Made by a program: the position numbers and the translations under genes. Of a stretch of 64,000 nucleotides of DNA, positions 27,433 to 29,324 are shown one piece after another. Under the pieces are notes generated by a model. The model saw only the letters and a program-made list of their open reading frames with translations, was not told the origin of the DNA and did no database searches. The DNA is from Bacillota bacterium (GTDB lineage: Bacteria; Bacillota; Clostridia; Christensenellales; Aristaeellaceae), in contig JAEZLW010000175.1 in NCBI GenBank assembly GCA_023415145.1, forward strand, positions 3,766 through 67,765. The letters are read 5' to 3'. Each line of letters begins with the position of its first letter. The first letter of the stretch is position 1.

Positions 27433-27577
27433 AGCTCAATCGTCGCACTGGTTCGCTGCCGCTCCCATCGCACGTTTCGCTTGATTCATCCGCCCTGTCC
27501 TTTTCCGCCACTGGCGGGGGCAGAGCTCCTTCACCTTTCGCGGTGGGGTTCGGGGAGGCAGAGCCCCCATGACGTCC
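27433..27577. repeat. intergenic composite repeat, copy R4 (between iolA and iolG)
   Basis: GCTCAATCGTCGCACTGGTTCGCTGCCGCTC...TTTCGCT...CATCCGCC...CCGCCACTGGCGG...GGGGTTCGGGGAGGCAGAGCCCCC. Ends 9 nt from the iolA stop codon. Confidence 0.7.
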
Positions 27578-29089
27578 TTACAGCGAGCCATCCCAGGTAT
27601 TAACAGAAGTTTTCTTTTTCTCTTCCTCGTCGAACCAGCGGACGGTGACGCATTTCGATTCGGTGAAGAAGCGGAAGGCATCTTTGCCGTGGCAATGCGG
27701 GTCGCCAAAGAAGGATTTTTTGTGGCCGCTGAAGGGGAAGACAGCCATGGGAACCGGGATGCCCACATTGACGCCCACCATGCCACCGTCGGTGCGCTTG
27801 ACAAACTCCCTGGCATAATGCCCATTCTGGGTGAAGATGACCGAACCGTTGGCGAAGGGGCTTTCATTCATAAGCGCCAGGCCTTCCTCAAAGCTCTTGA
27901 CACGTTTGATGCAAAGGACGGGGCCGAAAATTTCATTCTGGCCTACGGTCATGTCCTGGGTGACGTGATCCAGGATGGTGTGGCCGATGTAAAAGCCATT
28001 CTCGCAGCCTTGTACTTTCACATTGCGTCCGTCCAGCACCACCTTCGCGCCTTCATCGATGCCCTTTTGAATCCAGTCGCACACGAATTGCTTGTGGGAC
28101 GCGCTGACAACGGGCCCCAATGCGGTAGCCTTGTCGCAGGCAGGGCCGATCTTCTGCTGCTTGCAAAGCCTGACAAGCTCCGCCACCAGTTCATCCGCCA
28201 CTTCCTCATCCACCACCACCACGGGCAGCGCCATGCAGCGTTCCCCGGCGCAGCCGAAGCTGGAGTTCATGATGCCGGCGGCGGTGCGTGTGATGGGTGC
28301 ATCCTTGAGGACAAGCGCATGGTTCTTTGCCTCGCACAGGGCCTGTACGCGCTTGCCGTGGGCAGCGGCAGTTTTGTATACGTGCAAGCCGACGCTGGTG
28401 GAACCTACAAAAGTGATGCCCTGGATGTCGGGGTTTGTAAGCAGGATTTCCGCTTCGTTGCGGGAGCAGGGTACAACGTTCAAAACGCCGTCGGGAAAGC
28501 CGGCCTCTTTGTAAAGCTCCGCCATGCGAAGGCTGGTCATGGGCGTTGAGCTGGCGGGCTTGAGTATATAGGTATTGCCGCAGACGATGGCCAGAGGCGC
28601 CATCCAGCCCATGGGGATCATGGCGGGGAAGTTCCAGGGCGCAATGCCGGCGAACACGCCCATAGGCTCCCGGTAGAGCGTGGTGTCATAGCCCAAAGAG
28701 GTGTCCATAAGGCTTTCGCCCATTAAGAGGCTGGGGGCGGAGCAGGCCAGCTCCACCATTTCCTTGGACTTCAGTACATCCCCGGCGGCTTCGGTTAAAG
28801 CCTTGCCATGCTCGGTTGCCAGCAAAAGCGTCAGCTCATCCAGGTTCTTTTCGATCAGTTCCCGAAGTTTGAACATTAAATCCGCCCGGCGTTTGACGGG
28901 GGTATCCCGCCAGGCGGGATAGGCCTTTTTCGCTGTGGCGATGGCTGATTCCACCTCGTTTTTTAGGCAGCACGGGCTTTTGGCGATCACTTCGCCTAAG
29001 GACGGATTGTATACGTCCACGTATTTTTCGGTTCGGGAGGCGACATATTGCCCGCCGATGAAGGGCATTAACATTTCGGGTTGAGGCAT
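27578..29089 (-). CDS. iolA: methylmalonate-semialdehyde dehydrogenase (CoA-acylating)
   Basis: Aldehyde dehydrogenase with FPFSGHKKSFFGD, typical of MmsA/IolA, and the catalytic Cys region FGCAGERCMA. ATG lies 8 nt after GAAAGGA. Confidence 0.9.
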   Translation of the reverse strand: MPQPEMLMPFIGGQYVASRTEKYVDVYNPSLGEVIAKSPCCLKNEVESAIATAKKAYPAWRDTPVKRRADLMFKLRELIEKNLDELTLLLATEHGKALTEAAGDVLKSKEMVELACSAPSLLMGESLMDTSLGYDTTLYREPMGVFAGIAPWNFPAMIPMGWMAPLAIVCGNTYILKPASSTPMTSLRMAELYKEAGFPDGVLNVVPCSRNEAEILLTNPDIQGITFVGSTSVGLHVYKTAAAHGKRVQALCEAKNHALVLKDAPITRTAAGIMNSSFGCAGERCMALPVVVVDEEVADELVAELVRLCKQQKIGPACDKATALGPVVSASHKQFVCDWIQKGIDEGAKVVLDGRNVKVQGCENGFYIGHTILDHVTQDMTVGQNEIFGPVLCIKRVKSFEEGLALMNESPFANGSVIFTQNGHYAREFVKRTDGGMVGVNVGIPVPMAVFPFSGHKKSFFGDPHCHGKDAFRFFTESKCVTVRWFDEEEKKKTSVNTWDGSL

Positions 29090-29169
29090 GAGAATCATCC
29101 TTTCACAGATGTGATACGTTGTGATTGATATGCTTGTTAGGCAAGATTATTGTAAATTTCTAGACTATA

Positions 29170-29324
29170 AGGGTTTCGCGCCTGCGGGCGCGACCAGGGC
29201 TTTCCGGATGCCCTGGACCTTCGGGGGCATCACTGCCCAACAATAAATTACAAGGTTAAATCTAAATTATTTAGATTCCAAAGAGATGTATCTCATTGGC
29301 GGGGTCCAGGGGCGGAGCCCCTGG
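29170..29324. repeat. intergenic composite repeat, copy R5 (between iolC and iolA)
   Basis: Hairpins CGCGCC-TGCG-GGCGCG and CCAGGGC-TTTCCGGAT-GCCCTGG. An AT-rich palindrome AATCTAAAT-T-ATTTAGATT (29259-29277). A terminal hairpin CCAGGGG-CGGAG-CCCCTGG (29306-29324) touches the iolC stop codon. Confidence 0.7.

Follow-up and report, generated by a model that had tools for sequence, protein, structure and literature searches.

Much is known about the REP-type repeats of Proteobacteria. Those of Clostridia mostly lack annotation, and they break the assemblies of metagenome-assembled genomes (MAGs). SPRITE, BOX and RUP (Streptococcus pneumoniae) and ERIC/IRU (enterobacteria) are likewise small, structured, non-autonomous repeats found in transcribed intergenic DNA, and we know of no mirror-image linkers described for any of them. 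REPs often touch or supply stop codons, lie mostly downstream of genes and frequently form inverted doublets (Di Nocera 2013, PMC3733652). BoxC/TM repeats adopt triplex folds in vitro and are markers of unstable loci (Holder 2015, PMC4666352); the BoxC/TM_ECO consensus, CCCTCNCCC-loop-GGGNGAGGG-loop-GGGNGAGGG, belongs to class II (Y-R-R), with 9-nt arms and no orientation bias (PMC4666352). Here, we analyzed a stretch of 64,000 nt (the window) from a Bacillota MAG of the family Aristaeellaceae (assembly GCA_023415145.1, contig JAEZLW010000175.1, positions 3,766 to 67,765), in which GC-rich hairpin modules stand at the stop codons of iolC, iolA and metK. Each of the three modules is the 5' end of a longer copy, and all of these copies belong to a single dispersed repeat, non-coding and non-autonomous, which we call family A.

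Family A was found by relaxed pattern searches and an iterated nhmmer profile applied to the whole assembly (G000; 3.83 Mb in 220 contigs, 82% complete). Its consensus is composed, in this order, of a first hairpin (hp1), a C-rich linker, a second hairpin (hp2) and the tail GGAATCCC, giving a unit of about 57–70 nt. The GC stem of hp1 has a purine-rich 5' arm and a 3-nt loop, and a short turn precedes the C-rich linker. The hp2 stem is AAAGGGA/TCCCTTT with a variable loop, and the GGAATCCC tail is often trailed by a small third hairpin. The nhmmer search yielded about 59 non-overlapping copies in G000, and a covariance model of the repeat (R1) gave at least 56 matches. Copies were located at, or a few dozen bases from, the ends of contigs C62, C72, C138, C150, C202 and C217, so family A adds to the fragmentation of the assembly and its true copy number is higher.

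The position of the copies relative to genes was evaluated using a crude codon-score gene caller, on which all placement statistics are based. Among 54 full-length copies, 29 have their hp1 end between −3 and 12 nt after a stop codon on the same strand, compared with 1.9% expected for random placement in intergenic DNA (p = 2e-35), and the tail end adjoins a stop codon (≤12 nt) in 0 of the 54. The distance from stop codon to hp1 is mostly 0–3 nt (22 of the 29 are within 3 nt), and all three stop codons are used. The hp1 end was flush with a gene boundary 38 times, against 0 times for the tail end alone where both sides could be assessed. The congeners G001, G003 and G008 show the same arrangement, with the hp1 end at a stop codon in 18 of 32 copies versus 0 of 32 for the other end. 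A separate canonical terminator, consisting of a hairpin and a T-run, follows 10–70 nt downstream of 11 of the 29 stop-adjacent copies, and the start of the next gene follows about 12 of the 29. Therefore, family A is not the terminator; its place would be in the 3' untranslated region or between the cistrons of the message. Replication direction as the cause of the orientation was not supported by a GC-skew analysis, which was crude and used a small sample (4 co-oriented and 10 anti-oriented copies). In the same analysis, 10 of the 14 assignable stop-adjacent copies were behind genes on the inferred lagging strand, and 70% of all genes were skew-co-oriented.

Comparison with related species provided sites with and without the repeat. 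Among the 12 congeners, iolC and iolA each keep their C-terminus and stop position whether the element is present or absent, and the iolC/iolA spacers differ widely and carry several other repeat families. A second locus has a repeat-free spacer of 36 nt in G007 and G012, while G000 and G002 carry copies of different subfamilies 0 nt behind the stop codon. At a third locus, one and the same gene end is occupied by different subfamilies in different species. These comparisons show that family A is an insertion without target duplication, placed 0–2 nt behind the native stop codon where relatives have empty sites and 0–10 nt behind it in general, with hp1 toward the gene. We also considered whether the element supplies the stop codon; for iolC and iolA this is ruled out by the same stop position in element-free species. 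A few copies have the stop codon inside the hp1 stem, and in these it may come from the element.

In the window, all three copies are on the minus strand. The iolC stop codon TGA (29327–29325) is directly followed by hp1 (29324–29306), an 8-bp stem CCAGGGGC/GCCCCTGG with the 3-nt loop TCC, and then by ACCCCGCC; the C-rich linker ACCCCG at 29300–29305 is the mirror of the hp1 3' arm. A degenerate hp2 (29299–29278) and the tail with the small third hairpin (29277–29259) complete this copy, which is whole although its hp2 is degenerate. Its predicted fold consists of three hairpins at −28.6 kcal/mol (z = −6.3), and the fold z-scores computed for family A were −4.2 and −6.3. The metK stop codon TAA (12171–12169) is also directly followed by hp1 (12168–12150), with the stem of the iolC copy and a different loop, and then by ACCCCGCC; hp1 and the linker ACCCCG together span 12144–12168. 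Behind the iolA stop codon TAA (27580–27578), a gap of 9 nt precedes a related hairpin (27568–27554, GGGGGC/GCCTCC, with one G-T pair) followed by CCCCACC, and hp1 and linker together span 27542–27568. The strict 27-nt pattern of the module matched twice in the window, compared with 0.00 matches expected from 100 shuffles. The iolC and iolA copies sit inside operons.

The hp2 halves of the iolA and metK copies are separated by about 120 and 165 nt, respectively, with another repeat, family B, in between. In the iolA copy, the left half of hp2 (27541–27534) is followed by one nested family B unit (about 27533–27421; together 27421–27541), and the right half with an AATCCC tail occupies 27406–27420. 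In the metK copy, the left half (12143–12137) and the nested family B units extend over 11981–12143, and the right half (11980–11974) with the tail AGTCCC extends over 11968–11980; in the predicted fold, the entire family B insertion is closed by the hp2 arms. The best explanation is that these are older copies whose hp2 loop was later invaded by family B.

A preliminary description of this DNA had reported hairpin modules directly behind the iolC and metK stop codons and 9 nt behind that of iolA, and identical stems with different loops at iolC and metK; re-reading the coordinates on the minus strand reproduced these points. The gene names it used were upheld by profile matches for iolC (TIGR04382, 383 bits), the iolA-type MMSDH (TIGR01722, 563 bits) and metK (TIGR01034, 592 bits). 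The module described there does not stand alone and is the 5' third of the longer family A element. The three copies presented as comparable do all belong to family A, but those at iolA and metK are interrupted by nested family B; because of this interruption, the coordinate 27433 from which the description started lies inside a nested repeat. Upstream of metK, a SAM-I riboswitch was detected at 13581–13693 on the minus strand (RF00162, 79.2 bits).

Among described repeats, family A resembles REPs, BIMEs and REPINs as a short, high-copy intergenic palindrome that is found mostly 3' of genes, touches stop codons and forms inverted doublets, and it is a short imperfect palindrome with tens to hundreds of intergenic copies, as REP-type repeats are. 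However, the GTAG/CGTC tag is missing from both the consensus and the individual copies, and the unit is built of two or three different hairpins joined by mirror-image linkers. A search for the Y1/RAYT profile PF01797 gave no match in G000, G002, G005, G006, G010, G019, G020, G030 and two Methylobacterium isolates, and the carriers lacking it include near-complete genomes. Where Y1 genes are present in congeners, none is flanked by a family A copy. Membership in the REP/BIME class in the strict sense is thus unsupported, because there is neither a GTAG/CGTC tag nor an associated RAYT gene. Y1 (RAYT-like) matches occur in 8 of the 12 congeners, at least five of them as strong single-gene matches, two of these at contig ends. 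GTAG-tagged palindromes of the classical REP type occupy the same spacers in other species of the genus, and the Y1 genes of the congeners may belong to that family rather than to family A.

The preliminary description had proposed either REP/BIME-like elements that stabilize mRNA 3' ends, for which a RAYT/TnpA(REP)-like gene was to be sought, or a small non-autonomous element preferring gene ends. The first proposal is not supported in the strict sense, and the gene sought was missing from G000 and many other carriers. The second is backed by the empty-site comparison between species, and the genome-wide count of copies, orientations and stop distances returned a very strong bias toward the ends of open reading frames.

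The likeness to BoxC/PIT/TM_ECO repeats (Hoyne 2000; Holder 2015, PMC4666352) lies in a GC-rich hairpin with purine and pyrimidine arms and a mirror-image third segment; like family A, these repeats are multi-copy, intergenic and without a linked transposase. Family A differs in being of class III on the sense strand (R-Y-Y), with mirror segments of 5–6 nt and a second hairpin module, and it is strongly anchored to gene ends; its consensus and strand order are also different. SPRITE, BOX, RUP and ERIC share the small, structured, non-autonomous character, but they have another architecture and no sequence relation to family A. The Clostridiales-2 RNA motif (RF02937) has a similar two-hairpin outline and matches family A weakly on the opposite strand; however, these matches scored 30.2 and 21.1 bits against a gathering threshold of 58.6, and the conserved linker of the motif is missing. 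In Rfam, the whole window at the gathering threshold gave only the SAM riboswitch, and E-value scans, run on the region and on six consensus-like copies, yielded nothing beyond the sub-threshold Clostridiales-2 matches on the opposite strand. A BLAST search of a plasmid collection with a consensus-like copy returned two chance-level Streptomyces matches without annotation. A literature search with the exact hp2-core sequence found no paper in the collection searched, and one on repeat descriptions in Methylobacterium found nothing relevant.

Two classes of mobile element were tried and rejected. A DDE-type MITE does not fit, as the ends of single units are not inverted repeats and no direct repeats flank single units or doublets. 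An IS200/IS605-derived PATE does not fit either: the left flanks share just a stop codon, which may be any of the three, with no fixed 4–5-nt target, and the Y1 gene is missing from G000 and many other carriers. Placement at stop codons is already known from REPs (PMC3733652), and repeats with a hairpin plus a mirror segment are known as BoxC/PIT (PMC4666352). The combination of the family A sequence, the strict rule that hp1 faces the gene, the build of two paperclip-like modules and the cross-phylum spread is new to the sources that were searched.

The linker of family A corresponds to the hp1 3' arm reversed, that is, to the parallel complement of the purine-rich 5' arm. Examples of arm and linker are GGGGAC and CCCCTG, GAGGGC and CTCCCG, AGAGGC and CTCCG, and GGAGGAC and CCTCCT. 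The register of this mirror match is sharp, with 80% matches at one offset versus 39–51% at the others, and shuffling the linkers among copies gave a mirror z-score of about 14. Where the arm has an A at position 2, 4 or 5, the linker has a T at the corresponding position. For non-symmetric arms, the mirror matched at 4.78 of 6 positions, compared with 3.67 for a direct copy, and 0 of 2000 permutations reached the observed value. In an independent set from Methylobacterium and Desulfovibrionales, the length of the G-run in the arm equals that of the C-run in the linker in 33 of 38 copies (3-3, n = 20; 4-4, n = 13; other combinations, n = 5).

The arms are in the order of an intrastrand triplex, namely a purine arm, a complementary pyrimidine arm and a mirror-image third segment. 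From its sequence, hp1 plus linker has the layout of a potential intrastrand triplex, which by the classification of PMC4666352 is class III when read on the sense strand of the gene and class I when read on the opposite strand. ITxF triplex classes have at least 6 triplets and loops of 1–6 nt (Holder 2015, PMC4666352). The mirror match of family A spans 5–6 positions, and the turn would be 1–5 nt only with the outer stem pairs open. The hp2 stem and tail, with TCCC after a GGAA turn, look like a second mirror module, for which the evidence is weaker.

Pairing was analyzed in an alignment of 105 copies from G000 and about 90 other assemblies. Standard pairs make up 97.1% in the two helices, and with the partner shifted by one to three columns the share is no higher than 60%. 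Compensatory changes occur in 13 of 18 pairs, in hp1 and hp2 alike. The changes in the helices are nearly all from G-C to A-T. The asymmetry of wobble pairs was used as a test for a functional RNA strand and gave no support for a sense RNA.

Family A is a dispersed gene-end repeat with hp1 toward the gene, so that a copy separates the stop codon from the true terminator or from the cistron that follows. Taken as a whole, we consider it about evenly balanced whether it spreads as DNA and serves in the message as a 3' barrier. According to this proposal, its spread or exchange as DNA would be carried out by an enzyme other than RAYT, and this enzyme would read strictly Watson-Crick hairpins, or perhaps the fold of hairpin plus third strand. 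Family A would be co-transcribed with the upstream gene, and its very stable structure at the stop codon could then act as a barrier to 3' exonucleases and as a cistron boundary, for example between iolC and iolA.

Several points weigh against this proposal. Among sequencing runs, part of the window was found in just two, both of them DNA metagenomes, and in no RNA run; co-transcription and any stabilizing effect are inferred. G-U pairs are nearly absent (6 in about 1800 cells), and in hp1 the A-C mismatches (13) outnumber the G-T pairs (6); this pattern looks like strict Watson-Crick pairing, unlike the tolerance of a sense-strand RNA helix. Nine copies in G000 are antisense, with hp1 flush with the ribosome-binding site of housekeeping genes, and the preliminary model does not explain these copies, which lie directly upstream of the ribosome-binding sites; the genes with antisense upstream copies include gltX, speE, rlmH, nrdG, carA and ABC permeases. 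Because of them, the rule may be that hp1 faces the coding region, rather than that the repeat is sense in the 3' untranslated region. The RAYT/PF01797 search of carriers identified no mobilizing gene for family A, and around single copies and inverted doublets there was neither a target duplication nor a conserved target motif. A third-strand fold would require the opening of outer stem pairs and, on the sense strand, the protonation of cytosines.

The strict Watson-Crick pairing is also what would be seen for an element read as folded DNA, and it fits the possibility that family A is purely selfish or neutral repeat DNA with no host role. The element would then be mobile or exchanged by recombination, and in the short spacers an insertion would survive only if it left the coding region, the ribosome-binding site and the terminator intact. 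The patchy occurrence among relatives, the turnover and replacement of copies at single loci and the presence of other repeat families in the same spacers agree with such an explanation. On the other hand, 22 of 29 copies within 3 nt of the stop codon is tighter than a uniform fall in 13–40-nt spacers, it is only the hp1 end that is flush with the gene boundary (38 versus 0 for the tail alone), and the hp2 core and overall architecture are kept across phyla. We regard selfish DNA as a realistic possibility, although a minority one.

An unlikely but serious alternative is a DNA triplex element of the BoxC/PIT type, which would fold in single-stranded DNA (purine motif, G-rich strand) and drive rearrangement and one-sided deletion, trimming the spacer to the coding boundary. 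The mirror rule holds as such an element would have it, and the flush end is always that of hp1, on either side of genes. The strong differences of family A spacers between congeners also agree with this explanation, and published BoxC/TM repeats form triplexes in vitro and are found at unstable loci (PMC4666352). However, the stem of merely 5–6 triplets would compete with the outer hairpin pairs, and family A has an orientation bias that BoxC does not have. Both the neutral selfish explanation and the triplex explanation may hold together with a barrier function at the 3' end of the message.

We judged it improbable that family A is a modulator of translation termination, that is, a hairpin 0–3 nt after the stop codon that would enter the mRNA channel of the ribosome, stall terminating ribosomes and lower the output of the upstream gene. 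In E. coli, REPs within 15 nt of stop codons reportedly stall ribosomes and lower the output of the upstream gene, according to work by Liang, Rudd and Deutscher from 2015. Most family A copies have the matching distance from stop codon to hairpin, and the stems are GC-rich in a unit of about −29 kcal/mol, but neither the antisense copies at ribosome-binding sites nor the proteobacterial doublets, which face stop codons with their other end, would be explained. An intrinsic terminator of the upstream gene, which a GC-rich hairpin directly behind a gene might suggest, can practically be dismissed, since no T-run follows either hairpin, 11 of the 29 copies have a canonical terminator of their own 10–70 nt further on, and about 12 of the 29 are inside operons, those of iolC and iolA among them.

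The distribution of family A was determined by R1 searches, in which the counts per genome are lower bounds, and by a scan for the exact hp2 core with one genome per species. R1 matched all 12 congeners (from at least 4 to at least 102 matches each), 5 of 12 other genera of the family and 3 of 16 other families of the order, so that the spread is patchy. The hp2-core scan found at least 119 contigs. Among the matches listed, most were from MAGs of Oscillospiraceae, Ruminococcus and other Clostridia, with isolates of Desulfovibrio, Solidesulfovibrio and Methylobacterium and MAGs of Acidobacteriota, Spirochaetota, Lentisphaerae and Nitrospirota. Whole-genome searches with the model gave at least 138 matches in Methylobacterium guangdongense, at least 27 in Methylobacterium sp. 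R2-1, at least 84 in Solidesulfovibrio aerotolerans and at least 93 in Desulfovibrio sp. DV. The consensus sequences in these genomes differ from the G000 consensus but share its architecture and mirror rule. Since cultured Methylobacterium and Desulfovibrionales carry such related forms in many copies, bench testing is possible.

The arrangement of neighboring copies varies. In M. guangdongense (G045), most copies form doublets in which two subtypes stand head to head, their hp1 ends next to each other at a distance of about 10–70 nt, and the doublets of G000 are opposite to these, with hp1 facing outward. A tandem array of six family A copies on one strand, with a period of about 103 nt, was found in a congener (G008:C67:101-772).

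The spacers also contain the two other repeats seen in the window. Family B has a GC-rich unit of about 100 nt that is often repeated in tandem, and it is present at no fewer than 94 places in G000; in the window it occupies 11981–12136 and 27421–27533 on the minus strand. It always lies in the loop of a host hairpin, which may be the hp2 of family A, the hairpin of family C or a terminator-like stem. Its left flank ends in AGG/GGG and its right flank begins with CCC/CCT. Family B has the look of an element with hairpin loops as its target, and it matched no Rfam family. Family C is a hairpin repeat of about 60 nt located in the iolC–iolA spacer (29171–29229, minus strand). Its copies are numerous in every congener, with tandem arrays in G002, and in some of them family B occupies the loop.

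In summary, family A explains the strong difference between species in the iol and metK spacers of this genus. Its anchoring to the stop codon is unusually exact, and one particular end is always toward the coding region. Through its build of hairpin plus mirror strand, it connects REP-like repeats with the BoxC/PIT triplex repeats, which are poorly understood. As a more speculative idea, to which we give a rather small chance, family A may represent a cross-phylum "paperclip" class, in which each hairpin and its mirror-image pyrimidine strand would form a short triple helix. This fold would be recognized either in the message just behind the stop codon or in DNA that becomes transiently single-stranded where the translated region ends or begins. 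If this is true, the paperclip fold would be the bacterial equivalent of triple-helix elements that stabilize RNA, or else a signal for structure-guided insertion by which coding-region boundaries are sensed.

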